From assembly GCA_965248265.1 (NCBI GenBank), contig CBDFJF010000001.1, forward strand, positions 1,280,001 to 1,344,000: a stretch of 64,000 bases of DNA, in the 5' to 3' direction. Positions 36,694 to 58,755 of the stretch are shown piece by piece. The stretch is from Candidatus Latescibacterota bacterium (lineage in GTDB: Bacteria > Latescibacterota > UBA2968 > UBA8231). The notes below the pieces were generated by a model. That model saw only the letters and a program-made list of their open reading frames with translations, was not told the DNA's origin and did no database searches. Position 1 is the first letter of the stretch. Each line of letters opens with the position of its first letter. Position numbers and translations under genes: made by a program.

Positions 36694-38322
36694 TCAACTG
36701 TCGTCCCGGATGGAAAGTGAAGTGAGCCTCTCTCCTACCGCCCAGGGCTGGCGGCAAGGTACGCCCCGTTCGTACCTCCACAGACGCTGCCGGATCCAGC
36801 CGAAGTCACCGGCAGCGGACTCGACCCGCGCCAGAGCCGCCTGCTGCCAGCGGATCGCCTCTCCGAAACGCCCCAGTTCGGCCACTGCCATGGCGAGCGT
36901 CTCGGCATCGGCAACGGTCTCGGTCCCCCGCACGGACTCGCTGGCCATCTCCAACGCAACCAGGCCGTCGCGTCGCGATGCTTCCGGCATCGTCGCCAGC
37001 AGCCGTGCCAACAGCATCTTGAGCTCGCGGCTCGCGCGTAGCGCCCTGACATCTTCCTCCACGCTGGCCAGAGCCTGCTCGAAGCGCTCAAGCCGCATCA
37101 GGGCGACGACGGCTCCAAAGCGCGCAGACACCAGTTCGGGTCGCAGTTCCCGGGCGCGCCGGTAGCTCGCCAGCGCTTCTTCGAGACGGCCTCGATCGAA
37201 GAGCAACCCCGCCAGTGCCAGGTGAACGCGCTCTGAATGCGGATCGAGCTCGAGTGCCCGGCGCAAATGATGCTCGGCCGGCTCGTACTCACCATCACCT
37301 GTGAGGACCTGGGCTAGCAGTAGGCGGCTGAGGGTGTAGTCGGGCGCCCGTTCGACGAGTTCCTCGAGCTGCTCGAGCGCCTCCTGTCGCCGGTCGAGCT
37401 CGAGCAAGGCTGCAGCGAGATTGTACCGCACTCGCGGCTGCTCTGGATCTGCTGCTAGAGCCCGCTCGTACTCACCCACCGCCGCATCGAAGAGGCCGCG
37501 GTGGGCAGCCGTCATGCCGCGTTTGACGTAAACCTGGGTGCCGTCGCGCAGATTGCCCAGTTCCACCATGAGCGGATCTGAGAGTGCGACGGGAATGTGC
37601 CCCTGACGGGAGGCCCGGTCGAAGAAGGTCGCGGCACGCTCCTTCTCTCCCAGGCTGCGGTACGCCAACCCCAGGGCGTAGTGGATCTGAGAGGCTTGCG
37701 GTTGCTCGGTTAGCGCCTTTTCCAGCTCGCCGATCGCCGGCGTGAATTCGCCGGTTTCGAGGGCCACCCGGGCGAGGCCGACGCGGGCTGCGACACAGCG
37801 CGGATCAGCCTCGAGAGCCTGCCGGAAGTGGCGACGAGCGCCTTCGAGGTGGTGCTGCTCAAGCTCGACTTCGCCCAGCCACACCAGACTCGGAATGTCG
37901 AAGGGCCGCAGCGCCAACCCCTGCTCAAAGGCCGCGGTGGCAGCGCTGTAGTTGCCGAGCGTTCGCTCAACTTGTGCCAGAAGATAGGCCCAGCGAAACG
38001 TCGCCGGACTCAGCGAACATGCGTTTATGTAGCAGATTCGCGCCGGCTCCAACTCTCCGTACGTGTGGAAAACCTGACCCAGCTGCCCATAGCCTCGAGC
38101 CAGCAGCTCTGGCTCGGTTCCGCCTGCTCGCAACAGGCGTGAAACCGCAGCGTGTTGCCGCCGCAGTTGCTCACGCGGCTCCGGGTCGAGGCTGGCGAGA
38201 TCGGGCAAGGGCGGCAGGGACAGGAGCTCGGCCTGTCGTGCATCCGGTGACTGCTCAGAAGAGCCGCAGCCCGCGAGCAAAGCCATCGAGAGCGTTGCGA
38301 CGACGGCGTAGATCCCGCTCAT
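36694..38322 (-). CDS. Tetratricopeptide repeat lipoprotein
   Basis: LLAGC lipobox, multiple TPR units and a C-terminal LARLLAT...RDG..AL..A...AIRWQ cap. Confidence 0.88.
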   Translation of the reverse strand: MSGIYAVVATLSMALLAGCGSSEQSPDARQAELLSLPPLPDLASLDPEPREQLRRQHAAVSRLLRAGGTEPELLARGYGQLGQVFHTYGELEPARICYINACSLSPATFRWAYLLAQVERTLGNYSAATAAFEQGLALRPFDIPSLVWLGEVELEQHHLEGARRHFRQALEADPRCVAARVGLARVALETGEFTPAIGELEKALTEQPQASQIHYALGLAYRSLGEKERAATFFDRASRQGHIPVALSDPLMVELGNLRDGTQVYVKRGMTAAHRGLFDAAVGEYERALAADPEQPRVRYNLAAALLELDRRQEALEQLEELVERAPDYTLSRLLLAQVLTGDGEYEPAEHHLRRALELDPHSERVHLALAGLLFDRGRLEEALASYRRARELRPELVSARFGAVVALMRLERFEQALASVEEDVRALRASRELKMLLARLLATMPEASRRDGLVALEMASESVRGTETVADAETLAMAVAELGRFGEAIRWQQAALARVESAAGDFGWIRQRLWRYERGVPCRQPWAVGERLTSLSIRDDS

Positions 38323-42465: not shown

Positions 42466-42891
42466 TCAGATCACGGCCTCGTGCTCGATGAGGACCCGAT
42501 CCGGATTCTGCCTCCCGGTCCCCGTCGTGGTGCCCGCCAGGTACTTAATTCGAACGGTATCACCCGGCTTGACCCGGAACAGCGTTTTTCGCGCCTCACC
42601 GACCTCGCCCTGGACCTTCTCGATGTTGACGTTGAAGCCGGGACTTTCTTCTTCTACCGGAACCGGGACGGCCTTCCGGGCATCGGCTCTGAGGGTGAAG
42701 TCCGCCGTCGTGCCCACCACCTGGATCCGGTAGATATTCTCAGGGGTTTCATTCAAGAACAGGATTTCGTCATCTTCCCCCCCACGGCTATCGACCAACT
42801 TCCTTCCGCCACAGTCGGATAGCGCGAACGACGAGAGCAGCACAGTCAGCAATACCATCACCTTGCCCATGACACGATCCTCCATTGTCAC
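42466..42891 (-). CDS. Small exported hypothetical protein (possible lipoprotein)
   Basis: Hydrophobic signal ending ALSDC and a beta-rich mature part. Lies in operon spacing. Confidence 0.65.
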   Translation of the reverse strand: MTMEDRVMGKVMVLLTVLLSSFALSDCGGRKLVDSRGGEDDEILFLNETPENIYRIQVVGTTADFTLRADARKAVPVPVEEESPGFNVNIEKVQGEVGEARKTLFRVKPGDTVRIKYLAGTTTGTGRQNPDRVLIEHEAVI

Positions 42892-42900
42892 CTTGTGGGG

Positions 42901-45099
42901 TTACTTACTGGACAGGCTCTCGAAACGCTTCAGCATGGCTGTCGCTTCCTCCGCCTGGCCCTGCGCCGAGCGAAGTTGGGATAGATTGTAGTAAGCCTCT
43001 GCATAACCCCGATCGATTTCAACGGCCCGCTTCAGGGCCCTTTCCGCTTCATCGTGGCGTCCTGCGTCCGTATACAGTCCACCGAGCTCATTCCATGCTT
43101 CCTTGTAGGCTGGATTGAGCCTCAAAGCCCGCATCAGTGAATTTTCAGCCTCCTCGGGACGTCCTTGTTTGTTGTACAGGACCCCGAGCTCGTAGCGCGG
43201 TTCCGCGACGCTCGAATCGGCTTCGATGGCTTGCCACAGGGCCTTCTCCGCCTCCTCGTAGCGTCCCTGATTGGAATAAAAAAAGGACAACAGGCGGTGC
43301 GTGTAGGCGGATCTAACCCCTTCCAGGCGAAGGGCGTTTTCCAGTTCGGCGTACGCGGCCTCGAAGTTTCCGTCGGCCACGTGCGCCTGCGCGAGATCGT
43401 GCAGGCTGTCGCGGGTTGCCTCCTGTATTCGGGGATCGAGGGAGGAGTCATCCTCGGGAAGCCTTACGGCGCTGAGTTCACTCGCGAAGGTTTGCACCTG
43501 ATCCGCATACTTCTCCCGCACGTCTGCGAGCAGGCTGTTGAACAGCTGCTCCTCTGTCTTCAACCGAAGGTTGGCCGTCGCCCGAATTTTAGCCGCGGCG
43601 AATGGTTGCAATTTGCCCCCGCTCCTCTCCAGCACCCGGAAGACGGAATAGCCCTGCGGGACCTGCACTGGGCCAACGAGCTGACCCAACTCTGCGGCGA
43701 GCGCCTGGTCCAGCAGCTTCCCGTACCTGGCTCGCTGATACCCGTGTATGTGCAGATTCCCGTCCTCGGTACCGTGTCGTGTAGTCAGATGTACCAGGTC
43801 CTCAAACGGTTGCCCTGACTCCAACCGTTGACGCACGACGGTGGCCGCGTCCAGATCGTCCACGAGAATCTCCTGGATCGAGATCTGGTCAGGCTCGACG
43901 AACATGTCGTGGTGATCCAGGTAGAACCGCCTGGCCTCCTCCTCGCTCACCTCCACCTGGTCGCGGAGCGACGTCCGCAGAGCCATGAGCAGGAGCTTGA
44001 CCTCCTTGCGTTTTTTCCACTCGAGCGCTTGGGGGGTCTCTTGATACTCCAGCTTCCGAGACGCCTCCCAAATCATGATGTCGGGCACTACCCAGCTCCA
44101 GGCGGCCTCCACCACGGCGACACTGTCCCCGAGCGCGGGCATGCGTCGACGCTGGCGAAACGCCCAGTCGTAATCGCCGACCGTTATTTCTCCCCCTTCG
44201 TAGGTAAACAGCGTGGTGGCCGCCTCGGCGGGCGTGAGCTGTGGACGGGACGTTCCACCAGGCTCCTTGCCTACCAGGATCGCCAGTCCCTCCGGTTTCA
44301 GCGAAAGGCCTGATTCGTAGGCCAGCTCCTCGACCAGAGCCCGCCGCGCGACCGTCTGTTTCTCCAGCCCCAGATCGGAGCTCACTCTCTGACGGTTCCT
44401 GGGTGAGCTACCTTCCCGCTCATCGGTGAAGCGGATGAGGAGATAGTCACCGCCCGACGGCAGCGGCTCCGAGACTTCACCCAATTCCAGCTCGCGGAAG
44501 AGTTGGACGGGAATACCCCATCGGCGGACCGCGGATCCGTAGACGAAACCGAATTCCCCACCCTTTTCGGCATTGCGCTCGTCTATCGAGTGGAGCCGGG
44601 CCAGCTCGGCGAAATCAGCCCCCTCTTCCAGGCGCTGGCGAATCCCGGTGACCTGCTCTTCGGCCTCCACAACTATCCAGCTCAGGAGCCTCTGGCGGTC
44701 GAGCCCGTCTCTGACGAGACGCGCCTGCACTTCTTGCTCGGTGATGCTGACGAGAGGACTGAGGTGGCGTCTCTCGTAGTGATCGACGATGTGCCTGCGA
44801 AAGGCATATTCGTAGTCGGCCTGAACAGTGCTGGTGGTGTCGATGCCGCGAGAGCGGGTTTCGAGTACGAGCAGCTTTTCGTCGATGAGCGTCTGCAGGT
44901 AGTCGCGGCGGGCTGCATCCCCGACCTTTTTGCTGCGCAGTCCCGGCAACAGCGAAGCGGCGAACTCCTCGACTTCGCGCCGGTCGATGGACTCCTCGCC
45001 GACCCGGGCAACGACTGGAGTGACCTCTGCCTGCTCGCCGGGAGGCGCATCGGCGCAGGCGACGACGAGGAGACAAGCCGGAGCTATTTTTCGAATCAA
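42901..45099 (-). CDS. Lipoprotein peptidyl-prolyl isomerase with two parvulin domains and C-terminal TPR (SurA/PrsA-like foldase)
   Basis: VVAC lipobox. First parvulin domain: GADFAELARLHSID..GGEFG..GEVSEP. Second: EILV..GQPFEDL..VGPV..GYSVFRV. TPR tail. Confidence 0.85.
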   Translation of the reverse strand: MIRKIAPACLLVVACADAPPGEQAEVTPVVARVGEESIDRREVEEFAASLLPGLRSKKVGDAARRDYLQTLIDEKLLVLETRSRGIDTTSTVQADYEYAFRRHIVDHYERRHLSPLVSITEQEVQARLVRDGLDRQRLLSWIVVEAEEQVTGIRQRLEEGADFAELARLHSIDERNAEKGGEFGFVYGSAVRRWGIPVQLFRELELGEVSEPLPSGGDYLLIRFTDEREGSSPRNRQRVSSDLGLEKQTVARRALVEELAYESGLSLKPEGLAILVGKEPGGTSRPQLTPAEAATTLFTYEGGEITVGDYDWAFRQRRRMPALGDSVAVVEAAWSWVVPDIMIWEASRKLEYQETPQALEWKKRKEVKLLLMALRTSLRDQVEVSEEEARRFYLDHHDMFVEPDQISIQEILVDDLDAATVVRQRLESGQPFEDLVHLTTRHGTEDGNLHIHGYQRARYGKLLDQALAAELGQLVGPVQVPQGYSVFRVLERSGGKLQPFAAAKIRATANLRLKTEEQLFNSLLADVREKYADQVQTFASELSAVRLPEDDSSLDPRIQEATRDSLHDLAQAHVADGNFEAAYAELENALRLEGVRSAYTHRLLSFFYSNQGRYEEAEKALWQAIEADSSVAEPRYELGVLYNKQGRPEEAENSLMRALRLNPAYKEAWNELGGLYTDAGRHDEAERALKRAVEIDRGYAEAYYNLSQLRSAQGQAEEATAMLKRFESLSSK

Positions 45100-45111
45100 G
45101 TGGTCCTCAAT

Positions 45112-47967
45112 TCACTCCAGCCCGGCGAAAACGCTGATAAAGGTGGTCTGTATGTTCCTGGCCGGACCGTTCTCAGGATCGCGCCGGTCGAACTTGACCC
45201 CCATCTGAGTACTCAGTTTGTAGCCCAGATAGTCCCCCGTGTTGGTGAACTGCACGGCCAGGACGCGACTGTTCTGATCGTTGAGATCCTCCCTCAGATC
45301 CCTGAACTGGATGTACTCCACACCTGCTTCGACAAAAGTCCTGTTCAGGATCGGGTAGCGACCGAGCAGGGAGAACAGCTCCATGAGATTTTCGCGCTCA
45401 CCCACGTTGGCATGATCGCGCGTCTGGTTCCGGTACTCGCTCTTCCACCTCGGCTCCAGTTCCAACAGGCCCAGATCGAACTCGTAGGCGACTTTGTTGA
45501 TGACGCCGAAAAAATGCTCGTTCTGCAGCTGGTTGCGAATTCTGCGATCCTGCCTGTCGAGCTCAGTGTGGGTCAGGTCCCACTTGACCGTGTTGATGAA
45601 GCGCAGGTTACGCATGCCGGTGTAGTCGAAATTCAACCACAGGCTGTTGTGCCAGGCGTCCTCGAGCAGGAGCGGGTCGGTGATGTTCAGCGCTTGCCCT
45701 TCGGACTCGGGGGTCTGGTAGGCCCACTGGAGCAAGTTCTCGCGAATGTTGTCCTGGGCGCGCTTGACCATGTCGAAGACGCGCAGTCGACCGAGCCCAG
45801 GATAGTCGCGGTCGAGAGTGGCGAGCAGGTAGTTGGTCTCGTTGTCGCGGTTTTCCGAGATGAGGCGCTCGTCCATGCGGCCGACGATCACTCGAAACTC
45901 CGGGGTGATGTTGGCGCCGCCGTAGATATTGTAGCCTCGGTGATCCCGTCGATAGGGATAATCGGGCTCGTTGTCGTTCTCGAACCGGTCTATCCAGCCG
46001 TTGTTGTTCATGTCGGGACCGAAGAGGAATTCTGGTCTGTCCACGTTGAAGCGGAGGAAGGGCTCTTCGTAGTCTGGAAAGTCGTTGCGTCGTGCGCTGG
46101 CGCGGTTGTCGTTCTGGTTGAAGTCGGAGATGAAGTCGTTGTTTTCGTCCCATCCGGGGAATATCTCGAAGTCGCCGTTGCCCGCGCCTTTGCGCGCCAG
46201 GTCGGGAAACCGGTCCTGATCGTCGTTGTCGTCGACGAATTCATAGAAGTCGCGCGGGTCGCCGTAGTCGACGAACCCGGTCCTTGGCGCCCCTGTCGTG
46301 GTGACCGCCGTGGTGGAGTAATCGTGGTCCATGCTGAAGGCTTCACCAAACAGGAAAAATGGATAGGTCTCTTTGGAGACGTTTACCATCCAGGCCTCGG
46401 CGCGGCGATCACCCTCGATGCCGGAGAATGCGTCGTGGGTGATCAGGTTGGCGTTGGGGTACATCCTGTAGCTGTAGGACACGTCGTACTCCCCAAAGAC
46501 GTTGAAGCCGAGCACGTCCGTCACTTCGATGGTGCCGCCGACGACATGGGTGGCCGTGGGCAGGCCGTAGTCGAAGATGAGCAGGCGCAGATTGGAATTG
46601 TCCTGGACGTTGCCCTCTGCCCGGGCCACGAGCCGTGGCGCTGGTTGCTCTGCCTCCGAGCCCCCCCCGCCCACGTGAGTGGTCTGGCGATTGGAGTTCA
46701 CCCAGACCTGGTAGTCATTGCCGACCGGCACCTGGAAGCGGACCCTTTCGATCTCCGATTTGTCTCCGCGAGCATTGTCCACGAAGCCTGCGGGGCCCGT
46801 GCTGTTGAAATCGTAGCGCACGCTGATCTCCTCACCGCCATCGGCGGCCCGGAAGCCGGTGCGCTCGAACCCGCCCTGGATCACCGGCTCGAAGCCGATC
46901 TGCCTGGCGGTCTCCTGCTCTCCATCGATGTAGGTGATGATGAGATCGGAGCCTCCCTCGAAAAAGGAGGCCCCTCCCACGCCGTCTTCCGGGGAGTCGT
47001 CCTTCAGGATGAGCTCGACCCATTCTACGGGGGACGCGTTCTGGTCCTGGGTCAATTCCCCCTTGATCAGACTGGCTTCGAAACTTTCCAGATCGGTGTG
47101 GGACTGATGTGCGTTGACGAAAGTGGCGCCGAGCTTGATGAAATCGCCCAGCTGGGTGGTCACCCGTCCGCCGAACAGGGTCGTGTTGTTGGTAAGCTTG
47201 CTAGGAGCAAGGGTTTCCTCGCCGCCGGTCCGGTTGATGCGGGAATAGATGACGGTGGCTTCGTACTTGTCGGAGGCGAAGTCCCATTGCAGACCGTCGA
47301 AGGCGGGCTTGGCAAAGGTCATCGGCGTGAGAATGGTGCGCAGTTGGTGCCCGATGCTCAACGACGTGTGGTACTGGCCCTTGTGGTCCGAAGCGATCAC
47401 GAGGCCAGAGAACCAAGTTCTGAACTTTTCGTCCTTGTAGAGTGAATTGCCCAACTGGGCCTCGGGCTGATCCTGGCTGTGGTCGTAGATCAGCCAGCCT
47501 TTGGAGATGAAGTTTCCGTAGAGATCGTAGTAATAGTCGCCTTGGATCCCGACATCGACGTAGCGTTGGAAGCGTTGACGGGCGTAGTTGGTGTACTCCC
47601 ACTGGCGCCAGCGGTATTCTTCGTGGAGCTCGCCCGGCAGGTACCATTTGCGCATGGCCGGATCGAGAGAGGTCGTGAGCACGCTGGTACCCTGCGGTTG
47701 ATAGCTCCAGACATCCGCCTTGCGGATGCCCAGGCGCGTGCCATAATCCTGCTGCGCGAGGGCGGGACCGGAAACCGCGATGACGGTCAGGGCGAAGATT
47801 GCCTCGCGGCGTAAGTACCTTGCCACGAGGTGCGCGCCGCGAGCGCGGATGGATTCTACCGCGCTCAACGGTGATGGACTTGCGCTGCGAGGCACTACAG
47901 CAGCACGGTTGGAAAAAGTCGGTCTTCTCAAAACAAACCCTCCTCTGTATACCCTTAGATCCCTCAA
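45112..47967 (-). CDS. Large exported protein, probable outer-membrane beta-barrel with Asp-rich Ca-binding-like loops (true start possibly GTG 47826)
   Basis: Signal peptide ending ALA-QQ, alternating amphipathic strands, C-terminal TTFISVFAGLE, and DxxDxD-type motifs. Confidence 0.7.
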   Translation of the reverse strand: MRDLRVYRGGFVLRRPTFSNRAAVVPRSASPSPLSAVESIRARGAHLVARYLRREAIFALTVIAVSGPALAQQDYGTRLGIRKADVWSYQPQGTSVLTTSLDPAMRKWYLPGELHEEYRWRQWEYTNYARQRFQRYVDVGIQGDYYYDLYGNFISKGWLIYDHSQDQPEAQLGNSLYKDEKFRTWFSGLVIASDHKGQYHTSLSIGHQLRTILTPMTFAKPAFDGLQWDFASDKYEATVIYSRINRTGGEETLAPSKLTNNTTLFGGRVTTQLGDFIKLGATFVNAHQSHTDLESFEASLIKGELTQDQNASPVEWVELILKDDSPEDGVGGASFFEGGSDLIITYIDGEQETARQIGFEPVIQGGFERTGFRAADGGEEISVRYDFNSTGPAGFVDNARGDKSEIERVRFQVPVGNDYQVWVNSNRQTTHVGGGGSEAEQPAPRLVARAEGNVQDNSNLRLLIFDYGLPTATHVVGGTIEVTDVLGFNVFGEYDVSYSYRMYPNANLITHDAFSGIEGDRRAEAWMVNVSKETYPFFLFGEAFSMDHDYSTTAVTTTGAPRTGFVDYGDPRDFYEFVDDNDDQDRFPDLARKGAGNGDFEIFPGWDENNDFISDFNQNDNRASARRNDFPDYEEPFLRFNVDRPEFLFGPDMNNNGWIDRFENDNEPDYPYRRDHRGYNIYGGANITPEFRVIVGRMDERLISENRDNETNYLLATLDRDYPGLGRLRVFDMVKRAQDNIRENLLQWAYQTPESEGQALNITDPLLLEDAWHNSLWLNFDYTGMRNLRFINTVKWDLTHTELDRQDRRIRNQLQNEHFFGVINKVAYEFDLGLLELEPRWKSEYRNQTRDHANVGERENLMELFSLLGRYPILNRTFVEAGVEYIQFRDLREDLNDQNSRVLAVQFTNTGDYLGYKLSTQMGVKFDRRDPENGPARNIQTTFISVFAGLE

Positions 47968-48007
47968 GCTCCTGTTTACCGTGCACGCCCGGCGATGAAG
48001 GCTTTCG

Positions 48008-49960
48008 TCAATAGACGACGGCGACCGTTCCCAGAACCTCTTCTGATTTGACGTCCGCTTTTACCTCGAGCTTGAGCAGATAGAGTCCGGGTGGCACGAG
48101 CCGATCGTCAGCGTCGGTGCCGTCCCACAGTACGGGGTGGCGACCGCTCTCGATCTCGCCCGCGAACACGACGGCGATGCGGCGGCCGGAAAGATCGTAG
48201 ACGACGACCTCGACGGGTGTCGCCTTGGTGAGCTTGAAGACGTCGAAGCGGATTTCGGCGCTATCGTTGATGCCGTCGCCGTTGGGGGTGAAGGGGTTGG
48301 GCACCGCCTCCACAGCGCCCATCAGAGCCACCCCCGCGATGTCGGTGAGAACGGTCAGGTTCGAGCGCTTGTCCTCATCCTGGAGGTTCAGCCCGGGAAA
48401 ATCGCCGGTGAGAACCATGGCGTTGCCGGGAACCGCAGGCTGGGGCAGCTCATCAGATCCCTCGCTCGACCCCCATCCGTCGAATTCGATGCCGTAGCGC
48501 AGAACCGATGTGTCGAAGCGGAGTTTCAGCACGGAACCATCTTCCGTGATGGGCGGAAAACGGACCAGGAAGCGGTTGGGATCCACGGATACGAGGGCCC
48601 ATTCTGCCTCCTCGTCTGGGTAGGGCAACGATAAACCGGCCACGTCTACTTCGAAAACCTGTTCGTCCAGGATGTCTCCCTGTGCATCGAGCTTCTGAAT
48701 CTTTTCGAGGCGCTCGATGGGGGCCGAGGTCCGGATCTCGAAGGTGTCGAATCCGCCTTCGGAAGGCTCAAAGGCCTGCACCGCGTAGACGAATTCTCTG
48801 CTCTCCCCGATTTGCGCCTGACGCGGGAAGATCTCCGCGACGAGTTGCTGGGCAACCGGCGGTGAGTGCTCGAAGGAGAGGGAATCGACCCTTTGCGCCG
48901 CCTCCAGGTCCTGGCTTTCGAAGCGGATCTCGAATTGGAAGAACTGCCGCGGGGCCGGCGACGTGATCTGGATCCCTTCCCCGTCTGCGGCCGGCCGATA
49001 GGGCTCCGACCAGGGACTCCAGAACCGCGAATTCGCGCTGCTGCGGGTGCGCACCGAAATGCCGGATTTTTCGGGACCACCGATGGCGCCGGCCGACCAG
49101 TGAATCCGGCCGAACAGTGCGCCCCGTTCGCCCTCCTCTCCCCAATCGTCGGGGCCGAAGGGCCGGGACAGGTAGCTGCCGGCCGTCACATAGCCGCTGC
49201 CGAAGAGCTCGATCTCGTCGATCTCGAAACCGCCGAGGTACTGGGACGTCAGGCGCAGGTGCTCGACGAATTGGACCGGTATGTGCATCACGGCCCGGGC
49301 CCGCGTGTTCTGCCGTTCGTGGAATCTGGCGGTGACGTTCCAGTCGGGCCTGCCCGATTCTGAGAGATTGCTCGTGCCGTCGTTGACCTGGATGTAGTAG
49401 GCCCTGAGATACTCGCGGGGAAAAAGAGAGCTCGGATAGAAGACGATGCGATTCAAGCCGAGCGGTGCGCCCAGATCGATGTCGATGTGCTCGCCAAAGG
49501 TCGAATCGGAGATCTTGCGGTCATAGACCTCCAACGCGCCACCCGACGAATACTTGGTGCCGTTGATGATGTTCTCCAGGGCCTGTTGCAGTATCTCGGC
49601 GCTTCCCCGCGGCGGCCTGCCGAGGGGACTGTTCGGAGAGGTAATACTGACTCTCCCCCCGCGGGCGCGAATCTGCGTAAATAGATCGACCTCGGGGTCG
49701 ATCTGGATCGGCACGATCCAGCCGGGCTCGGCGGCGGAATCGATGAGGTTTCCAGGGGAGCTGCCGTTGCCTGCCCAGGGGTTCTCGACCCCGCCGATGA
49801 CGACGGTGTCCAGCGCCAGGCTCCCGTGGACGAAGAAAATGATCGACCCGATAAAGCAGCAGCCAGCGATACTGCGGTGACGGGGAGCCGGAGGACAGGA
49901 TGTCCGAGGACAGGACGTCCTCGGCCTCGGGCAGCTAGTAGACGACGGAGACGATGCCAC
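48008..49960 (-). CDS. Secreted protein with C-terminal T9SS type-B-like/FlgD-Ig domain (paralog 3); start uncertain
   Basis: PNPFTPNGDGIND...YDLSGRRI...WDG...VPPGLY...VAVVY*. In-frame GTG at 49960 overlaps the upstream gene. Confidence 0.85.
   Translation of the reverse strand: MASSPSSTSCPRPRTSCPRTSCPPAPRHRSIAGCCFIGSIIFFVHGSLALDTVVIGGVENPWAGNGSSPGNLIDSAAEPGWIVPIQIDPEVDLFTQIRARGGRVSITSPNSPLGRPPRGSAEILQQALENIINGTKYSSGGALEVYDRKISDSTFGEHIDIDLGAPLGLNRIVFYPSSLFPREYLRAYYIQVNDGTSNLSESGRPDWNVTARFHERQNTRARAVMHIPVQFVEHLRLTSQYLGGFEIDEIELFGSGYVTAGSYLSRPFGPDDWGEEGERGALFGRIHWSAGAIGGPEKSGISVRTRSSANSRFWSPWSEPYRPAADGEGIQITSPAPRQFFQFEIRFESQDLEAAQRVDSLSFEHSPPVAQQLVAEIFPRQAQIGESREFVYAVQAFEPSEGGFDTFEIRTSAPIERLEKIQKLDAQGDILDEQVFEVDVAGLSLPYPDEEAEWALVSVDPNRFLVRFPPITEDGSVLKLRFDTSVLRYGIEFDGWGSSEGSDELPQPAVPGNAMVLTGDFPGLNLQDEDKRSNLTVLTDIAGVALMGAVEAVPNPFTPNGDGINDSAEIRFDVFKLTKATPVEVVVYDLSGRRIAVVFAGEIESGRHPVLWDGTDADDRLVPPGLYLLKLEVKADVKSEEVLGTVAVVY
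49891..49920. repeat. 15-bp tandem duplication
   Basis: GAGGACAGGATGTCC followed by GAGGACAGGACGTCC. Confidence 0.6.
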
Positions 49961-52073
49961 TGTGGTTTTCGTTCCTCTCGTCCGTCTCGACCGAAATCCG
50001 GTAGATGTAGATTCCCGGAGGCACGAGCCTGCCATCATCGTCGCGCCCGTTCCAATTCTCGCCATAGGTACCGCTGACCAGCGGCTCGCTCTGCAGCTGC
50101 CTCACCCGGCGCCCGGTTAGATCGTAGATCGCCAACTCGGCCGCAGCGACGTCCGTCAGGTTGAGCAGAGCATAGGACAGCACCGTCTCATCGTTGATGT
50201 CATCCCCGTTGGGCGTAAACGGGTTCGGCTGCACCTGCGCCTGACTGACCAGCTCTTCGCTCAAGGGGATGGTCACCACGACCCCCCCTCCACTGTAGCG
50301 ATCGATGGCATCCCCGCCGTCCACGAGCTGTCGCACTTCGTCGCCGCCATCGATGAATATGCGGCCCTTGAACTCCGTGCCGAATTTGACCACGGAGGCG
50401 TCGAACACCACCTGCACCCGCTTCCCGTTATCGGCGACTCCCTTGAGAGTGTCGAAGTGCACGACCAGACGATCGTCCTGGATCTCCGCATTCGGGTGGG
50501 TGTCGTCCGGGTGAAGAAGGCACGGTGCACAGATGATCTTGTCAGTGCCCGCGCTGTCAATCCGCACCAGACGCACCGCCGAAGGCTGCACGAACGTCTC
50601 GATCTCCAGGCTGTCGAAGCCGCCATCGGTGTCTCCCAGTTCGGGCAGAAGGGTGTAGGTGAAGGTGGTGTCTACCGCCGCCGGCACTTCCTTCGGGAAG
50701 ATCTCGGCGACGGCCCGGCCGGCACTGGGCGGCTTGGAAAAGTCGAACCCGATCGCCTCCAGGCGACTGCCGTCGCTGATCGTGGGAGTAAAATCGATGC
50801 GGAACTGGATGTAGCGCCGCGGCCCGGGTGAAGCGACGGGCACACCCTCGGCTCCCTTGTCGAAATCATAGGGCGTCGACCAGAAGCTCCAGTTTTCGTG
50901 GTCGTAGGTGATGGGACCGAGCTGTGCACTGTAATCCGTTTTTTTCCGTTCTCTTCCTTGGGTTCGCCCGTAATCATCTAGCGTCAATGGCTCCCCGTCA
51001 TCCGAGAAAGTCGACAATTCGTCGCCCCGCTCGGTGAACACGGAGTAGACGCTGGGGTCGGGACAGCCGCCGAAAACGCTCCCTTGGCGGTCGCATGCGG
51101 CGCCCTCCGGCGTGTCCTCGGCGCGACCTGTGCGGGTGCGGATAATGGTGCGGGCATTCGGGTCCCGCGTGCCGGTCCAGTAGAGCCGGCCCCAACTGGC
51201 CAGCTCACCGGAATTCGCAGGCCCCACGTCTTCGATGTCGAAGATCTTGGAGATATAGGTGGCTTCGGGCACGTAGCCGTCGCCGTAGATCTCGAACTCG
51301 GCGAGCTGCCAGGTTTTGTTAGGGATCAAGACGCCGGCCCTAAAGCGCTCTACGACCTCCATGTAGACTTCTCGCCCGCGCAGCAGTGGAAAGGTAACTT
51401 CCACGCTGTCCTTCTTGTTGTCGAGCTCGTCGCGGACCAGTTCCCCGTCGACGTAAAGTCTAAAAACATCGACGTACTCTTCCGTGGAGTCCGGGTGCGT
51501 GAAGAAGAGGATCCGATTGATTGGGAAAATGGCTCCCAGGTCCACGGTGGGCCGGGGTGTTCCCTCCGGGCCGCCGATATCGCCCCGGTAATTGTAGACG
51601 GTGGTGGTGTCTCCATCCAGGGCGCGATCGAAATGCCCCGGGGTGCGCTCAAAAATCCGCTCCCGTTGCCAGCCACCCCGCTCTAAATAACCCAGAGAGA
51701 GGTTGAAGTCCGGCGCGATTCTGATCGGCATCACGTGGGTCTCGGAAAAGTCCAGACTGACGATTCCCCCAGACGCCTCGTTGTATTCAGGGTAGAGGTC
51801 TGCCTCCAGACGCCCGGCCGCCTCGATCCAGGTGCGGCTGTCCACTGTCAGCGCCGGGGCGTCGGCTGCCCAGCTCTCGGCCGATTCGGGGTTGCCGATC
51901 ACCAGCATAGTGCGCGAGTGCAGGCTCGTGGCGCCGGCAAGGCCGATGACCAGGCAGGCCAACCCATAGACGAAACTCCTCCTCGCACGCATGGTGCTAG
52001 TGCCGTGTCTCAGACGTAGGCTTGTGAAGTGAGGGCGTCGAGGCATCTGAATACAGGCATTGAGACACGTCAC
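49935..52073 (-). CDS. Secreted protein with C-terminal T9SS type-B-like/FlgD-Ig domain (paralog 2)
   Basis: Signal peptide and PNPFTPNGDDIND...YDLTGRRV...WNG...VPPGIY...VSVVY*. Alternative start ATG 51992. Confidence 0.87.
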   Translation of the reverse strand: MTCLNACIQMPRRPHFTSLRLRHGTSTMRARRSFVYGLACLVIGLAGATSLHSRTMLVIGNPESAESWAADAPALTVDSRTWIEAAGRLEADLYPEYNEASGGIVSLDFSETHVMPIRIAPDFNLSLGYLERGGWQRERIFERTPGHFDRALDGDTTTVYNYRGDIGGPEGTPRPTVDLGAIFPINRILFFTHPDSTEEYVDVFRLYVDGELVRDELDNKKDSVEVTFPLLRGREVYMEVVERFRAGVLIPNKTWQLAEFEIYGDGYVPEATYISKIFDIEDVGPANSGELASWGRLYWTGTRDPNARTIIRTRTGRAEDTPEGAACDRQGSVFGGCPDPSVYSVFTERGDELSTFSDDGEPLTLDDYGRTQGRERKKTDYSAQLGPITYDHENWSFWSTPYDFDKGAEGVPVASPGPRRYIQFRIDFTPTISDGSRLEAIGFDFSKPPSAGRAVAEIFPKEVPAAVDTTFTYTLLPELGDTDGGFDSLEIETFVQPSAVRLVRIDSAGTDKIICAPCLLHPDDTHPNAEIQDDRLVVHFDTLKGVADNGKRVQVVFDASVVKFGTEFKGRIFIDGGDEVRQLVDGGDAIDRYSGGGVVVTIPLSEELVSQAQVQPNPFTPNGDDINDETVLSYALLNLTDVAAAELAIYDLTGRRVRQLQSEPLVSGTYGENWNGRDDDGRLVPPGIYIYRISVETDERNENHSGIVSVVY

Positions 52074-52085
52074 TCGATCTCCTTC

Positions 52086-55000
52086 TCAGTACGCCACGCT
52101 GACGAGGCGGACCGCCGAGTTGTCCGAGCCCACGTCGCTGTCCACGTGGACGCGGCACAGATAGAGCCCAGGCGCCACGAGCTCCCCTTCGTCGTTGTGA
52201 CCGCCGCGGCCCTGCCATACCAGGACCCGCTCACCGCCCGCTTCCTCACGGGACACCACTGCGACCTCGACGCCGGCCAGGGTGAAGAACCGGGCCTCGA
52301 TCCGGCGTGGCGCATCGATATTCGTCACGGAAAGCACGAGCCGCACCCGATCGTTGATGCCGTCGCCGTTGGGAGTGAAGGGATTCGGCGTGATCTCCAC
52401 ACCGGACAGCACCCGATGGTCGTCGATGGGGGTGAAAATGGCCGCCCCTTGACCGTCGATCTTCTCTATGGCGTCTCCGGGGTCCGCCTTCTGCCAGAAT
52501 TCGGGCATACTCGTATCGACAACCTCCGAGTTGGCCACCTCGGCGGAGAAGGTCGTGCCGCTCACGAAGATGCGGGAGCGGAAACGCAGCTCCACCACCT
52601 CACCCTCGCGCAGCACCGGCCCTCTCTGCTGGCTGCCCAGCCGGTTGTAGCTGGCCCGGTTCAGGGGCTCGCCGTCGTTGTCGAGCGCCACCTCTTCGCC
52701 GTCGAAGAGCACGCGATAGTAGCGCACCAGCCCCTGGGATTCAAAGGGAAGTTCGTTGTAGTCGCCCGCATCCACTTTGCGCAGAGTCTGGGCTCCACTC
52801 TCAGGATCGGTCGCCGTCACCTCGAAATAGTCGATGCGGCCCTGCTCTTTGACCGGGTCCAGTGGCAGCTTGCTCCAGGCCGCCTCGGTGAGTACACCGC
52901 CGGATTTGTCCAGCGGGGCTTCATCCCCCGCCCTTGCGATGCGCTGGTAAATGGGGGCGCTGTCGGCGTCGTAGTCGACGAGGCGCGGCAGTTTTATCCA
53001 CAGGGTGTCGGCCGTGCGGGTCGGGACAATGTCGAGGGGATCCCCCGCTGAATTGAAGAAGCCGCCCTCAACATCGCCCGTGAACACCTCGACTTCATCA
53101 TCTGCGACGCTTTCTTCGTCCTTCTTCACGAGTGCGTCCCTTCCGCCGACGCGCACCTCTATTAATTCCATTTCATTTTGATGCGACGCCAGCACCCGGA
53201 CCTCGTCGAAACGGCTGCTCGCATCCGGCTCGTCGTCTCGGAAGAGCGGCCGCACGAAGACGGAGAACGTGTCCGGCACGACGCTGGCGACATCGACCTG
53301 GGGGGTGACCTCCGCCAGGACCTGGCGCGCGAAGGGATCGGTGAAGTGGACGATGATCGAGTCCAGGGTGGCAACGGCATCGGGTCGGTCGGAAACCAGT
53401 CTGGCCTCCAGTTTGAGGAATCGACGCGGCGAGGGCGAGATGAATCGGTCTCCGGAGTGCTCGTACGCCCTGCTCCAGGCGCTCCAATCCACTCCCGGGG
53501 CAGAGGTCGCGAGAGAATCGCCTCTGTCACTGTCTCTGGTCCTCCGGTGCCAGTACTTGTCGCGGGTCACTTCTGTTCCATCGGTGAAGAACCACCGCCA
53601 CTCAGTCTTGACTTCGTTGCCGGTTTGCGTGCGGACTTCGATGCGGGTCCCCGGAGGGGTGTCGCCGACCCATTCCACCCGTGTCAGGGCGCGCGCCTGC
53701 CGCTGGCCTCTGCTGTCCTTGAACTCGATCAGCGGCGACGTGAGCGTCACCTGCGCGACACGGCCCTCTCCGAACACTTGCATTTGGCGGATGGCGACAT
53801 GCGTGGAAGGCGACGTGTTGGAGCCGTCGAGGTGGACGAATTCGATAAGGCGGGTTCGCAACGGTTCGAAGCGCTCCTCCGTATAGAAGAATTCGTCTGT
53901 GGTCCCGTTGCGTTCGCGTTCAGGTGGCGAGATCCTGTTCCAGAGCGGGGACCCGTCTGAGGCGGCGGAACCGTCTGAAACCCGGACTGTCCACCCCCAG
54001 AGTTCGCGTGGTGGTTGGCCTCTCTCCGATATCGGGTTAGCCAGGATGCGGAAGGTGTCCACCCAGAACAAGGCCCCCAGATCGATGATGAGCGGCCCAC
54101 CCCATTCTGCCCGGGGTTGTCCTGGTCTCAGGGCGAGGTAGAGGTAGGCGTCCCAATCGTCCAAGAAGCTGCCATTGAAAGCATTTGGCGTATTCTGGTC
54201 TTTGATGCCCCGAGGGGTAATTTGGCCACCCCTCTCGAGAATCCCGAGCGCTATGTTGTCGCCGACCGTGATGACCTGCACGTCGGCGAGGCGCGGGCGT
54301 TCCTTCCGATAGTAACGCACTGTACCCAGGCGCCCGGGCTCCTCTGTCTCGATGGTCTCGTACGCTTCGCGGGTCGTCAGAACCTCCTCGCCGTCAAAGC
54401 TCTTGAGATAGTACTCGATTCTCCCCTGCTCTTCCCGCGACAGGTCGTCTTCATAGACCTCTCGGCTCACTTCCTCGGCCCGGTCCAGGTTGCTGTCGGT
54501 CACGACGATGCGGACGTACTGTATGGGTGTGCCGGTGAAATCGGCGTCAGCCTTCGCGTCCGGTTCGAGGACAAACTCGAACTCCCGCTGGTCCCGATTG
54601 CCCCGCGTCGTGCCCCCGACGACGCGGTAGTCCAGCGGCCGCACAGCGCTCTCATACTTTAGCAACCCGGTAGAGACCAGTACCCGGAACTGCAGGAAGG
54701 GATCCCCAAGCTCTTCGTCGACGAAGCGCAGGATGATCTTTTCGGCCGAAACCAGCCGGCCCAGGTCGAATTCGATCCACCACTTGAACGAGGGCTCGTC
54801 CAGGTCCGGCTCCCAGTAAGACTCGAAGCGGTCGTCATCCCGGTCGATGACATTGCCCGCAAGCTCCAGGTTGGAGCCGGCGTTCTTGATGCCGCCAGGC
54901 GCTCGCGGACCCTCGAGGACGGTTATGAATTGGTCCTGGTCCTTGGCATCGATAATGTGGGTGAAGCTGGGCGCATCGGTGACCGCATCCACCTGCTTGC

Positions 55001-55268
55001 GGAATTCGCGAGGTACTATCAGGGCATTGGGGCCGCCGTCCTTCATCTGCACTTCCAGAACGTCCTGGCGGACCTCATCGATCGGTTGCTCCAGATTCCC
55101 CAGTTGCCACTGACTCCAGTGGCTGGCCGTGTTGACGGTGATCTGCCGCTTCTGGATGTCGATCCGGTAACCCTGGGTGAAGCCCGGATTCGACCAGACC
55201 AGCAACATCGCGGCCCCGAGGAAAGCGGCCCCCTGGGCCGCCCTCGTCATGGTGGGAAATCCGTACAT
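52086..55268 (-). CDS. Secreted 1060-aa protein with discoidin-like modules and C-terminal T9SS type-B-like/FlgD-Ig domain (paralog 1)
   Basis: Signal peptide, WWIEFDLGRL and IIDLGALFWV jelly-roll-like motifs, and PNPFTPNGDGIND...VAPGLY...VSVAY*. Confidence 0.87.
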   Translation of the reverse strand: MYGFPTMTRAAQGAAFLGAAMLLVWSNPGFTQGYRIDIQKRQITVNTASHWSQWQLGNLEQPIDEVRQDVLEVQMKDGGPNALIVPREFRKQVDAVTDAPSFTHIIDAKDQDQFITVLEGPRAPGGIKNAGSNLELAGNVIDRDDDRFESYWEPDLDEPSFKWWIEFDLGRLVSAEKIILRFVDEELGDPFLQFRVLVSTGLLKYESAVRPLDYRVVGGTTRGNRDQREFEFVLEPDAKADADFTGTPIQYVRIVVTDSNLDRAEEVSREVYEDDLSREEQGRIEYYLKSFDGEEVLTTREAYETIETEEPGRLGTVRYYRKERPRLADVQVITVGDNIALGILERGGQITPRGIKDQNTPNAFNGSFLDDWDAYLYLALRPGQPRAEWGGPLIIDLGALFWVDTFRILANPISERGQPPRELWGWTVRVSDGSAASDGSPLWNRISPPERERNGTTDEFFYTEERFEPLRTRLIEFVHLDGSNTSPSTHVAIRQMQVFGEGRVAQVTLTSPLIEFKDSRGQRQARALTRVEWVGDTPPGTRIEVRTQTGNEVKTEWRWFFTDGTEVTRDKYWHRRTRDSDRGDSLATSAPGVDWSAWSRAYEHSGDRFISPSPRRFLKLEARLVSDRPDAVATLDSIIVHFTDPFARQVLAEVTPQVDVASVVPDTFSVFVRPLFRDDEPDASSRFDEVRVLASHQNEMELIEVRVGGRDALVKKDEESVADDEVEVFTGDVEGGFFNSAGDPLDIVPTRTADTLWIKLPRLVDYDADSAPIYQRIARAGDEAPLDKSGGVLTEAAWSKLPLDPVKEQGRIDYFEVTATDPESGAQTLRKVDAGDYNELPFESQGLVRYYRVLFDGEEVALDNDGEPLNRASYNRLGSQQRGPVLREGEVVELRFRSRIFVSGTTFSAEVANSEVVDTSMPEFWQKADPGDAIEKIDGQGAAIFTPIDDHRVLSGVEITPNPFTPNGDGINDRVRLVLSVTNIDAPRRIEARFFTLAGVEVAVVSREEAGGERVLVWQGRGGHNDEGELVAPGLYLCRVHVDSDVGSDNSAVRLVSVAY

Positions 55269-55300
55269 ATGGCGTCTACTGACTCCCTCGCAGAGCGTAT

Positions 55301-55338
55301 AAGGAAAACGAGGGAGGTCGTGGAGCCCCTCCCTCGTT
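55301..55338 (-). terminator. Intrinsic terminator downstream of 55394-56260
   Basis: 11-bp stem AACGAGGGAGG/CCTCCCTCGTT (55307-55338), ending TTTTCCTT on the minus strand. Confidence 0.7.
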
Positions 55339-55393
55339 CCGTATCCTCAGAAAAGATTGCGCCTGATCGTGTTGATCGGCCTCAACCTGAAAA

Positions 55394-56260
55394 CTAGAAC
55401 CGAGACTTCAAGCGGCCCCAGGTGTTGGACTCCACCGCCGTCATCGTGCCGCCCCCGGCGGGGGTGATATCTGTATCCAGCTCGAAATCAGCAGCTCTGT
55501 CGCCGTGTGCACATGGTGCTCCGAGGTACCACCAGCCGTCGTTCGCCCAGGTGCCGTCGGCAATCTGTTCGGCCTCGCTCAGGTGGGCGTCGTCGTCCGT
55601 GACGATCATGTCCCAACCGATAGTCTCGCCCGGATCGAGCGTGGACTGGATAGAGCCGGTGTCGTTTCCGTCGCCATCCCTCTGCAAGTCGTCCCAAGGT
55701 GTGAATCTGACTTCGTAGTAATACGTGCTCTCGCCGAACTCCTCGCCGATGAAGGACGTGGCGAATTCGAAGTGCGCCGGCTCTTGGTGAAACCCGGTGG
55801 CCGGGGTATGGTCCGCACCCTCTAGCGGAGGTACCGAGATGTTCCACCATCCGTTACCGTAGTCGAAATCGCTGCCCGAGTGATCGCCGTCGGTGTAAAA
55901 CTCGATGTTGTCGTCAAAGCAGGTGCAGTTATTGGGGGTATCCCTCACGTGGAGCTGGTCGAAAACCCAGGCGGCCTGGTACAGCTGATCGCTGTTGGCG
56001 TTGTAGCCTCCGTACCAGCCAAAGTCCAGGTCGGCCTTGTCGATCCCACCCCCCGGCCTGTCAGCGTAGGCGTTCCCGGCGGCATCCTCGATCAGAATGT
56101 GGAAATAATCGGGAAGCGCCGTCCACTCGCTTATATCCCCATCGATGGTGGGCAACCCATCGTCCGGAAACTGAATTGCCAGAAATTCGCCCCCTGAGTG
56201 CGCCGACGCCGATACGGCCATGAGGGCCACGGCCAACGGCAGCAAAAGAAGCTTCTTCAT
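55394..56260 (-). CDS. Secreted CBM9/DOMON-like protein with C-terminal TAVESNTWGRLKSRF tail
   Basis: GGAGGT RBS, signal peptide MKKLLLL...ASA, and PTIDGDISEW, DNIEFYTDGDHSG, YEVR and GETIGWD motifs. Confidence 0.82.
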   Translation of the reverse strand: MKKLLLLPLAVALMAVSASAHSGGEFLAIQFPDDGLPTIDGDISEWTALPDYFHILIEDAAGNAYADRPGGGIDKADLDFGWYGGYNANSDQLYQAAWVFDQLHVRDTPNNCTCFDDNIEFYTDGDHSGSDFDYGNGWWNISVPPLEGADHTPATGFHQEPAHFEFATSFIGEEFGESTYYYEVRFTPWDDLQRDGDGNDTGSIQSTLDPGETIGWDMIVTDDDAHLSEAEQIADGTWANDGWWYLGAPCAHGDRAADFELDTDITPAGGGTMTAVESNTWGRLKSRF

Positions 56261-58737: not shown

Positions 58738-58755
58738 ACTTTACAGAGGTTGACA

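Follow-up and report, generated by a model that had tools for sequence, protein, structure and literature searches.

A conserved module of three CTD-bearing paralogues, a predicted large beta-barrel and a parvulin lipoprotein, held in about nine copies in a Latescibacterota-type genome, likely builds a sugar-binding surface complex with T9SS help

We analyzed a window of 64,000 nucleotides from an uncultured Latescibacterota-type bacterium, represented by a metagenome-assembled genome alone (assembly GCA_965248265.1, contig CBDFJF010000001.1, positions 1,280,001 to 1,344,000) and conclude that it contains a gene module which exists in about nine conserved copies and, aided by the T9SS, probably assembles a surface complex that binds sugars. 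In our best explanation, which we hold at somewhat less than even confidence, three paralogous proteins (B, C and D) would be T9SS cargo and a predicted large barrel protein (E) would be their dedicated partner in place of PorP/SprF. The module spans 42466-56341 on the minus strand; its genes and their neighbors are listed here in window coordinates.

55394..56260, minus strand: gene A, secreted protein of 288 aa (frame 55394-56341; signal-peptide start at 56260)
52086..55268, minus strand: gene B, 1060 aa, the largest paralogue; carries discoidin-like domains and ends in a type-B-like CTD
49935..52073, minus strand: gene C, 712-aa frame, paralogue with a CHU_C/FlgD_ig CTD
48008..49882, minus strand: gene D, paralogue of ~620 aa from its likely later start (frame 48008-50065, 685 aa)
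45112..47826, minus strand: gene E, predicted large outer-membrane beta-barrel, 904 aa from its likely GTG start at 47826 (frame 45112-47967, 951 aa)
42901..45099, minus strand: gene F, lipoprotein of 732 aa; two parvulin PPIase domains, then TPRs at the C-terminus
42466..42891, minus strand: gene G, small exported protein of 141 aa
40172..42427, minus strand: gene H, multi-pass membrane protein, weakly PMT_2 (GT-C)-like, with TPRs at its C-terminus
36694..40175, minus strand: genes I (FG-GAP/UnbV_ASPIC) and J (TPR), accessory and co-transcribed, families from Pfam
56827..58737, plus strand: divergent and frequent neighbor, a DUF6785/DUF6784 multi-pass membrane protein (DUF6785 432 bits)

The first-pass annotation of this DNA had described A through G as co-oriented and mostly tightly spaced, and each gene was found as described on the minus strand. 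The gaps between frames are 9-125 bases, the exceptions being the C and D frames, which overlap, and the D-E spacing of 40 bases, which becomes 181 bases if counted from the likely start of E. The boundary that had been drawn at 42466 needs revision, since the co-oriented run extends as far as 30207, through H, a frequent member of the unit, then I and J and other genes after them, spaced by at most 68 bases or overlapping by 4 bases; I and J each overlap their neighbors by 4 bases. GHL10 and GH42-like genes follow the DUF6785 gene within the window.

The three paralogues end in motifs that can be read straight from the translations as originally quoted, PNPFTPNGD(G/D)IND, W(Q/N/D)G and V(A/P)PG(L/I)Y, with the C-terminal ends VSVAY, VSVVY and VAVVY. 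Their likeness extends beyond the CTD, in agreement with the claim that they are paralogues: by BLASTP, C and D align at E 1e-46 across 343 residues, B and C at 6e-19 in the CTD and 1e-11 across 429 residues of the body, and B and D at 6e-18 and 4e-09. The profile scans that had been proposed gave a divided answer. In Pfam, CHU_C (PF13585, cut-off 27) scored 40.2 bits in C, 30.5 in D and 15.8, under the cut-off, in B, and FlgD_ig (cut-off 27) scored 31.3 in C and 36.7 in D, but TIGR04131 in NCBIfam (cut-off 35) was not reached (25.7 bits in C, 20.7 in D, no match in B) and PorP_SprF gave no match. That TIGR04131 stays below its cut-off in all three proteins, and that E is unlike PorP/SprF, counts against the T9SS-cargo reading. 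Among 84 homologues of C, precomputed domain annotation lists PF13585 for 73 and PF00754 or PF22633 for 6. Discoidin/CBM32-type signals are weak in B and D, with F5_F8_type_C_2 in B at 17.1 bits, under its cut-off. AlphaFold2 modelled D as a chain of beta-sandwich domains with an eight-strand CTD at the end (pLDDT 83.4, pTM 0.71), and its Foldseek matches were generic Ig/FN3/CBM32-type adhesin and S-layer domains; the eight-strand sandwich is a further observation that counts against T9SS cargo.

An HMM built from the module CTDs was run over the ORFs of the genome. B scored 114 bits, and 33 ORFs scored 71-141 bits, every one a member of the B/C/D family; the match reached the last residue in all 33. 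Hydrophobic N-terminal signal-like segments were visible by eye in the translations of CTD proteins. E-family genes lie within 15 kb of 27 of the 33 high-scoring ORFs and of 3 of 82 weaker, type-A-like CTD ORFs, and such zones make up 5.9% of the genome. The type-B-like CTD class is tied to E. The same HMM matched the type-A-like CTDs of the genome at 20-50 bits, which indicates that the two CTD classes are homologous. Of 41 invariant columns in the alignment of the paralogue family, 14 lie within the last ~100 of 624 residues, and a CTD that is the best-conserved part of the paralogues is expected if all copies meet one shared machine.

At E 0.01 neither Pfam nor NCBIfam matched E, Pfam stayed empty even at E 5, and a PDB sequence search returned no match. 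The model of E (pLDDT 67.4, pTM 0.68) is a large membrane beta-barrel of ~24-26 long strands, as counted from the DSSP listing of the model. The N-terminal region of E is conserved, as is an Asp/Asn-rich loop, and a beta-sandwich interrupts the barrel after about six strands. Membrane beta-barrels make up all 50 VIA rows (Z 9.7-13.5) and the best-ranked matches in Foldseek, so that structure prediction and Foldseek agree with the suggestion that the product of 45112-47967 is a barrel. The family has 732 representative relatives, with homologues of ~890 aa, and on the strength of the model E is predicted to belong to an undescribed family of large outer-membrane beta-barrels. Structurally, E matched best with SlpA of the Deinococcus S-layer deinoxanthin-binding complex (7zgx, 8ae1; Foldseek E 2.5e-08; Z 13.5, rmsd 5.4 over 327 residues), whose outer-membrane barrel is very large and bears a surface layer. 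TM-scores of about 0.2 indicate that the two have only the general barrel fold in common; unlike SlpA, E has no SLH or other Pfam match, and the proteins show no sequence similarity.

Several known barrel types were considered for E and rejected. No profile (PF11751, TIGR03519) links E to PorP/SprF, consistent with the earlier failure to recognise it as PorP, and PorP/SprF proteins are about one third the size of E. There was no Plug, TonB-box or TonB_dep_Rec match to suggest a TonB-dependent transporter or SusC, and the Pfam library did recognise a true TonB-dependent receptor elsewhere in this genome. A fimbrial usher was set aside because no Usher or PapD-type family appeared among the operon Pfam results and the likeness to FimD was not above that to other barrels. 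LptD is at odds with the lack of an LptD/OstA profile match, with the 13 full-length copies and with the absence of the family from 62 of 168 genomes of the phylum.

Protein A had been labelled secreted and CBM9-like. A signal peptide is visible in its translation, in support of secretion, but the CBM9 label comes solely from a language-model look-alike search, because Pfam yields nothing for A even at E 5; in that search the nearest three Atlas clusters carry CBM9_1 in 13%, 37% and 100% of their members. The protein ends in the tail AVESNTWGRLKSRF, and a WG-x-[IL]K tail occurs in most of 54 A-like ORFs, with the strict pattern in 35. The description of F as a two-parvulin/TPR lipoprotein was upheld by Rotamase_2 (68.5 bits, cut-off 27), Rotamase (40.8, cut-off 21.7), Rotamase_3 (29.1, cut-off 22.5), TPR families over their cut-offs and a lipobox-like LVVAC in the translation. 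No SurA or PrsA equivalog model in NCBIfam reached its cut-off in F. F is likely a dedicated periplasmic chaperone. G has no family match in Pfam, including at E 5, and a G-like ORF was present in 1 of 58 full-flank loci; G is not a core member. H carries TPR families over their cut-offs in Pfam, and PMT_2 at 18.4 bits, under the cut-off of 26.1. A PMT_2-plus-TPR protein neighboring another cluster scored 35.6 bits, and BLASTP at E 1e-8 gave no link between it and H.

Synteny was counted in the relatives' loci with full flanks (n=58). E and a B-type paralogue were found in all 58, F in 57 and three or more paralogues in 54, followed by A-like genes (46), H (43), DUF6785 (28), I (18) and J (12). 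Gene order is kept in these loci, and the proposed cargo-barrel-foldase unit is conserved. This genome alone holds 13 full-length E-family genes in about nine clusters. In a phyletic survey of 168 genomes of one phylum, 106 carried E and 103 the D family; all 75 genomes of the family to which the window belongs have both, and none of the 56 genomes from three sister families has either. The barrel and paralogue families thus share one phyletic pattern within one phylum. Full-text literature searches found no description of the module. Of the three outcomes that the first-pass annotation had named as fatal to its proposal (E not a barrel, gene order not conserved, a system already fully described), none was obtained.

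The window itself contains no T9SS core genes, as had been reported, but a search of the whole genome did not bear out the idea that the unit stands apart from the T9SS. SprA was found at 296.9 and 276.6 bits in one 2090-aa frame (cut-off 200), PorU in three ORFs at 626-655 bits (cut-off 420), and PorV in Pfam at 67 and 32.8 bits (cut-off 27), the 67-bit one beside a PorU, with 155.6 bits in NCBIfam, under the cut-off of 250. In 47 further ORFs the match to the PorU model is confined to its C-terminal ~80-130 positions, the pattern expected of CTDs. The proposal of an analogous cargo-barrel-chaperone unit outside Bacteroidota stands as to the conserved unit and the predicted non-PorP barrel, but not as to separateness from the T9SS. 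PF11751 was not found in 10 operon proteins, and neither PF11751 nor TIGR03519 was found genome-wide in searches run without a positive control. With profiles that likewise lacked a positive control, GldL and GldN were not found, GldM reached 20 bits and the top GldK score was 92.5 bits (cut-off 350). SprA is present in 163 of the 168 phylum genomes, including the 56 without the module, so its co-occurrence with E says little; among the 106 E-bearing genomes 102 have SprA, and three of the four exceptions are at most 80% complete. One genome (G031, 96% complete) has E and D-family matches with no SprA match, and this, together with the absence of GldL and GldN from the matches, counts against T9SS cargo.

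In Flavobacterium johnsoniae, according to one report, type B CTD cargo needs a cognate outer-membrane shuttle encoded beside it (PMC12618676). The module resembles the Bacteroidota type B arrangement in the C-terminal CHU_C-class domain with its FTPNGDGxND motif, in the outer-membrane beta-barrel gene adjoining the cargo gene, in having several such pairs per genome, and in a genome that encodes SprA, PorU and PorV. It differs in its barrel of ~900 aa and ~24-26 strands with no PorP_SprF match, in its three paralogous cargo proteins per unit, in a CTD that scores below the TIGR04131 cut-off and is limited to one protein family rather than tagging diverse cargo, in its additional parvulin/TPR lipoprotein and weakly GT-C-like TPR membrane protein, and in its Latescibacterota-type host.

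We infer the following scheme for how the cargo is exported and docked, how it is chaperoned and glycosylated, and what the complex binds. B, C and D would cross the inner membrane via Sec, F would keep them export-competent, and H may glycosylate them. The CHU_C/FlgD-Ig domains at their C-termini probably act as signals for export by, and docking to, the T9SS translocon. B, C and D would exit via SprA and then be captured by E, giving one B-C-D set per barrel unit at the surface, and A, with its conserved AVE..SWGxIK tail, would join the complex. Glycan binding is suggested by the discoidin/CBM32-like B, C and D, the possibly CBM9-like A and the nearby DUF6785 and glycoside-hydrolase-like genes; on these grounds, glycans would be the most plausible ligand of the finished complex.

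A T9SS-independent route, in which E is the translocon, F the chaperone and B, C and D are subunits that thread or cap the barrel via their conserved CTDs, much as in the logic of chaperone-usher or two-partner systems, is in our judgement unlikely. A dedicated large barrel and a dedicated chaperone fit autonomous export also, and this too counts against T9SS cargo. Each unit has its own barrel and chaperone, with F in nearly every locus, and E is large and contains an inserted beta-sandwich, while its conserved N-terminal region could, in the model, be a plug. Ushers are among the structural matches of E (FimD 6e14_D, Z 12.4, rmsd 4.7 over 323 residues; 3rfz_B, E 6e-05), but SlpA, MtrB, LptD and porins match at least as well, and no module protein matches a Usher, PapD, POTRA or Omp85 profile. 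The chaperone-usher systems (FimD/PapC with FimC/PapD) do share with the module a similarly sized barrel into which a beta-sandwich is inserted, a helper of their own in the periplasm and several paralogous beta-sandwich subunits in one operon. In contrast, the module lacks sequence-profile membership, its helper is a parvulin/TPR lipoprotein and not an Ig-like chaperone, its subunits are multi-domain proteins of 600-1000 aa, and donor-strand exchange is not indicated. Autonomous export would also agree with the non-detection of PorP/SprF, GldL and GldN in searches without a positive control, and with the single 96%-complete genome that has E and no SprA match. Against this, the module CTDs belong to the T9SS CTD superfamily, and SprA accompanies E in all but four genomes, mostly incomplete ones.

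Slightly more doubtful is a SusC/SusD-like role in glycan capture and uptake, with E as import channel, A-D as glycan binders, DUF6785 proteins as inner-membrane carriers and the many copies serving different substrates; it concerns function and is compatible with either export route. The putative sugar-binding domains of B, D and some C homologues, the CBM9_1 look-alike clusters of A, and the multiplication of E as in expanded nutrient loci are consistent with it. DUF6785 is enriched near E, with 10 of its 33 copies in this genome no more than 15 kb from an E-family gene, a zone that covers 5.9% of the genome, and a copy at nearly half of the full-flank loci, but the other 23 copies lie away from E. 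The GHL10 and GH42-like genes that come after DUF6785 in this window, and a GH42 gene adjoining another cluster in this genome, also fit, but GHL10 occurs in only 1 of 77 loci and no glycoside hydrolase lies within the conserved core. SusC/SusD PULs resemble the module in their many paralogous loci per genome, glycoside-hydrolase-like genes near some loci, and an outer-membrane barrel of ~900-1000 aa with surface proteins bearing carbohydrate-binding-like domains; the module has no plug or TonB-dependent receptor signature, no SusD homologue and no hydrolases in its core. An envelope-biogenesis pair of the lptD-surA type with unrelated paralogues as neighbors, to which the order of barrel and two-parvulin genes and an LptD structure among the Foldseek matches (5iv9_A, E 1e-07) might point, is very improbable and already disfavoured, given the lack of an LptD/OstA profile match, the absence of E from every genome of the three sister families, its tight linkage to the paralogues and a copy number unsuited to a housekeeping gene.

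Beyond the T9SS-cargo explanation that we prefer, we consider it possible, though somewhat unlikely, that the module is a distinct type of outer-membrane machine restricted to one phylum. Such a machine would combine a new barrel family, bearing a calcium-loop-like acidic insert, with a private chaperone, would export and hold a heterotrimer of surface proteins, and would have been duplicated about ten-fold per genome for substrate-specific capture. If this were true, the module would be a counterpart of the PUL, independently invented outside Bacteroidota.

The first-pass annotation proposed that a run of co-oriented genes encodes a cargo-barrel-chaperone unit, and our results indicate that this unit is real, conserved and repeated, recurring at 58 loci with full flanks and in about nine clusters of the window's own genome. 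The operon and a plus-strand neighbour are laid out as follows.

55394-56260, minus strand: A, secreted 288-aa protein, from the signal-peptide start
52086-55268, minus strand: B, 1060-aa paralogue
49935-52073, minus strand: C, 712-aa paralogue
48008-50065 (frame), minus strand: D, third paralogue
45112-47967 (frame), minus strand: E, predicted barrel; 904 residues with a signal peptide if started from the GTG at 47826
42901-45099, minus strand: F, two-parvulin/TPR lipoprotein
42466-42891, minus strand: G
40172-42427, minus strand: H, TPR membrane protein
down to 30207, minus strand: I, J and further genes
56827-58737, plus strand: DUF6785/DUF6784 multi-pass membrane protein

Neighbouring genes in the operon are separated by 0-125 bases or overlap by 4 bases, the exceptions being the overlapping frames of C and D and the 40-181 bases that precede E. 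The GTG start assigned to E (904 residues) agrees with homologues of about 890 residues, whose alignments span 92-96% of that longer frame. Because the same-strand gene run, with H, I, J and others, reaches 30207, the operon extent first assigned, 42466..56260, was too short. The stretch at 30207-40175 (minus strand) encodes two FG-GAP/UnbV_ASPIC proteins, a TPR protein, a 406-aa protein without a family, an ankyrin and PQQ_2 propeller protein and a second PQQ_2 propeller protein.

Relatives of E are numerous. A word-indexed search yielded 377 matches among 8000 scored candidates, an exhaustive search yielded 732 representatives at 50% identity, and at least 835 related stretches are present in a species-representative genome collection. 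The window proteins were mapped on 77 fetched loci around E relatives, and counts were taken from the 58 with full 10-kb flanks. B was present at all 58 and F at 57, three or more B/C/D-family ORFs were found at 54, and A and H occurred at 46 and 43, respectively; the DUF6785 protein (28), I (18), J (12) and G (1) completed the tally. These loci carried one E gene in 33 cases, two in 24 and three in 1, and a few gene arrangements recurred among the loci, for example F-B-E-H-D-C-E-A. In the window's own genome (7.32 Mb in 2 contigs, 92% complete), 13 E genes are full-length and several more are divergent; they fall into about nine clusters, each of which includes B, C and D types.

We also surveyed 168 genomes of the phylum; 106 contain E and 103 contain the D family. 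The two distributions agree almost exactly family by family, and both proteins are present in 75/75 genomes of the window's family, while the E and B/C/D families are missing from all 56 genomes (G037-G092) that represent three sister families within its class. NCBI records labelled 'Gemmatimonadetes' do not show that the E family reaches a second phylum. The three records checked share SprA contig numbers, coordinates and scores with G118, G116 and G110 of the window's family, and thus the E family is, as far as seen, limited to this phylum. The records labelled 'Woeseia' and 'Bryobacterales' have E relatives on contigs 12.8 and 4.7 kb long and give no SprA match; these occurrences may be binning errors.

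E itself gave no match in Pfam (even at E 5) or NCBIfam, and none was found among PDB sequences with a profile of 31 family members. An Atlas search with E returned its own family and a sub-threshold DUF6029 lead at 0.89, which Pfam failed to bear out. The structural model of E (pLDDT 67.4, pTM 0.68) contains approximately 24-26 long antiparallel strands, as counted from the DSSP listing, and a confident beta-sandwich insert at residues 269-402 that follows about six strands. Two regions modelled with low confidence are conserved, the N-terminal residues 18-140 and, strongly so, the Asp/Asn-rich residues 534-616. Foldseek returned 68 matches at E 0.001 or better, the best-ranked of which are outer-membrane barrels (SlpA, MtrB, LptD, ushers, porins and SprA) with TM-scores near 0.2, and all 50 rows of a Foldseek-independent structure search were membrane beta-barrels (Z 9.7-13.5). 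Since both searches point to barrels, E is predicted to be a large barrel of the outer membrane that belongs to no recognised family, and the structural model thus agrees with the initial suggestion that this protein of about 900 aa forms a beta-barrel.

The proposal that B, C and D are three paralogues was borne out by BLASTP, where similarity extends past the tail into the body of the proteins. C and D align over 343 residues (E 1e-46), B and C align in the tail (6e-19) and over 429 body residues (1e-11), and B and D align at 6e-18 and 4e-09. The C-terminal domain (CTD) of these proteins had been described as type-B-like. C and D exceed the Pfam cut-offs for CHU_C (40.2 and 30.5 bits, cut-off 27, with B at just 15.8 bits) and FlgD_ig (31.3 and 36.7 bits), but in the NCBIfam type B model, TIGR04131 (cut-off 35), C (25.7) and D (20.7) fall below the cut-off and B has no match. 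PF13585 is present in 73 of 84 database homologues of C, and the sole informative source name among them is 'gliding motility-associated-like protein'. AlphaFold2 modelled D as an all-beta protein (pLDDT 83.4, pTM 0.71) with a jelly-roll region, two more sandwiches and an eight-strand C-terminal sandwich. Its Foldseek matches were confined to generic Ig/FN3/CBM32-type adhesin, S-layer and peptidase-appendage domains, with no enzyme among them.

Conservation of the paralogues is marked in the tail, where 14 of 41 invariant columns fall in the last ~100 of 624 residues. An HMM made from 12 CTDs of the window's own genome was run on the ORFs of that genome and separated two groups. The high-scoring group comprises 33 ORFs (71-141 bits) that are all of the B/C/D family and end exactly at the domain end, and the low-scoring group comprises 82 ORFs (20-50 bits) bearing a type-A-like PNPFNPST pattern. 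Zones of 15 kb around E-family genes, which amount to 5.9% of the genome, hold 27 of the 33 high-scoring ORFs compared with only 3 of the 82 low-scoring ones. Therefore, we conclude that the CTD of B/C/D is not a general tag and belongs to one protein family travelling with E. Three B/C/D-family ORFs with high-scoring CTDs at C2:2412885-2434329 (second contig of the same genome) have no E-family gene within 15 kb and may represent an orphan cargo cluster.

Among the remaining members, F contains two parvulin domains and TPRs above the Pfam cut-offs, and a lipobox-like LVVAC is present in its translation. H combines TPRs with a weak likeness to PMT_2 (18.4 bits, cut-off 26.1); a PMT_2-plus-TPR protein adjoining another cluster exceeds that cut-off at 35.6 bits, but a BLASTP screen did not connect it to H. 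A had been called a secreted CBM9-like protein. Its signal-peptide start is in keeping with secretion, but A has no family match in Pfam and none in a PDB sequence search, and CBM9_1 is found only through its three nearest look-alike clusters (13%, 37% and 100% of members); therefore the CBM9 likeness is a lead and not a result. The A family also shares a C-terminal tail, AVE-xx-[ST]WG-x-[IL]K-xx (gene A: 55394-55440), in which the final residue is not always aromatic. In the window's own genome 10 ORFs bear this tail (C1:1833543-1834544 and C2:2108808-2109839 are examples), and 6 of the 10 adjoin E clusters. Most of 54 A-like ORFs from relatives bear it too, and it may serve as a tag for sorting or docking.

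Additional genes were observed around the E clusters. The DUF6785/DUF6784 protein may be an inner-membrane carrier tied to the module; a second copy begins near 63562 and runs past the window end, and 10 of the 33 full copies in the genome fall inside the 15-kb zones around E-family genes, compared with the 5.9% of the genome that these zones cover. Downstream of the DUF6785 gene are GHL10 and GH42-like genes (58750-61817, plus strand), and a GH42 gene and a beta-helix protein adjoin another E cluster (C1:1444753-1448817). Three large membrane proteins (859-970 aa; C1:130685-133438, C1:147947-150859 and C2:2104111-2106690) adjoin two E clusters and share a spermidine-synthase-like domain, and two of the three also match MFS_1.

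The window's own genome encodes components of type IX secretion (T9SS). SprA was found in one 2090-aa frame (296.9 and 276.6 bits) along with three PorU proteins (626-655 bits), one of which adjoins a PorV-like protein that is under the NCBIfam cut-off (155.6 bits) and over that of Pfam (67 bits). The CTD-like C-terminal end of the PorU model gave 47 additional matches. GldM scored 20 bits, and the GldK matches were rejected as generic FGE-sulfatase domains. Profile searches for PorP/SprF, GldL and GldN were blank, but control genomes were blank too for four profiles, and absence is thus not established. Across the phylum, SprA is present in 163/168 genomes, including 56/56 of those without the module; only 4 of the 106 E-bearing genomes have no SprA match, three of them at most 80% complete and one 96% complete. 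The module therefore sits in a T9SS-equipped lineage, so the original notion of an analogous system outside Bacteroidota needs to be recast, although the unit it described stands.

We tentatively favour, at a little short of an even chance, a variant of the T9SS type B scheme with E in place of PorP/SprF. The B/C/D cargo would be exported through T9SS, and E would serve in the role of PorP/SprF. Several observations are consistent with such a variant: the tail is of the CHU_C class, it is strongly conserved across all paralogues, it is confined to E-linked genes, and the genome encodes SprA, PorU and PorV. Five CTD motifs are required for secretion (PMC12618676), and type B cargo reportedly stays anchored on PorP-like proteins (PMC9143113). 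A complex prediction for E (residues 26-904) and the D CTD (residues 515-624) scored 0.00 in two runs without controls and weighs neither way on binding. An autonomous export route, which we regard as rather doubtful, would be equally compatible with the size of E, its insert and its private chaperone. Glycan capture or uptake, which is compatible with either export route, seems an unlikely function, although discoidin and possible CBM9 modules, the many module copies, the enriched DUF6785 membrane proteins and the nearby GH-like genes speak for it. A housekeeping LptD-SurA pair is rejected because of copy number and phyletic gaps.

Full-text searches of one literature collection found no paper linking Latescibacteria with T9SS and none naming DUF6785. 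No RNA run was listed with window positions 46301-56300, for which DNA is present in four runs of one study.

Latescibacterota are widespread, uncultured bacteria that are presumed to subsist on complex polymers. A gene set with about nine copies per genome, present in 75/75 genomes of its family, must be central to cell-surface presentation. The module is a natural experiment on the handling of T9SS type B cargo, in which a much bigger barrel, served by a chaperone of its own, seems to stand in for the small PorP/SprF shuttle, and the three module-free families that keep SprA offer a clean natural contrast for finding its purpose. For annotation, the module gives a starting point for hundreds of proteins that are at present listed as hypothetical. 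Should E turn out to be a translocon or import channel, a new family of outer-membrane proteins would be gained, together with a defined set of partners.
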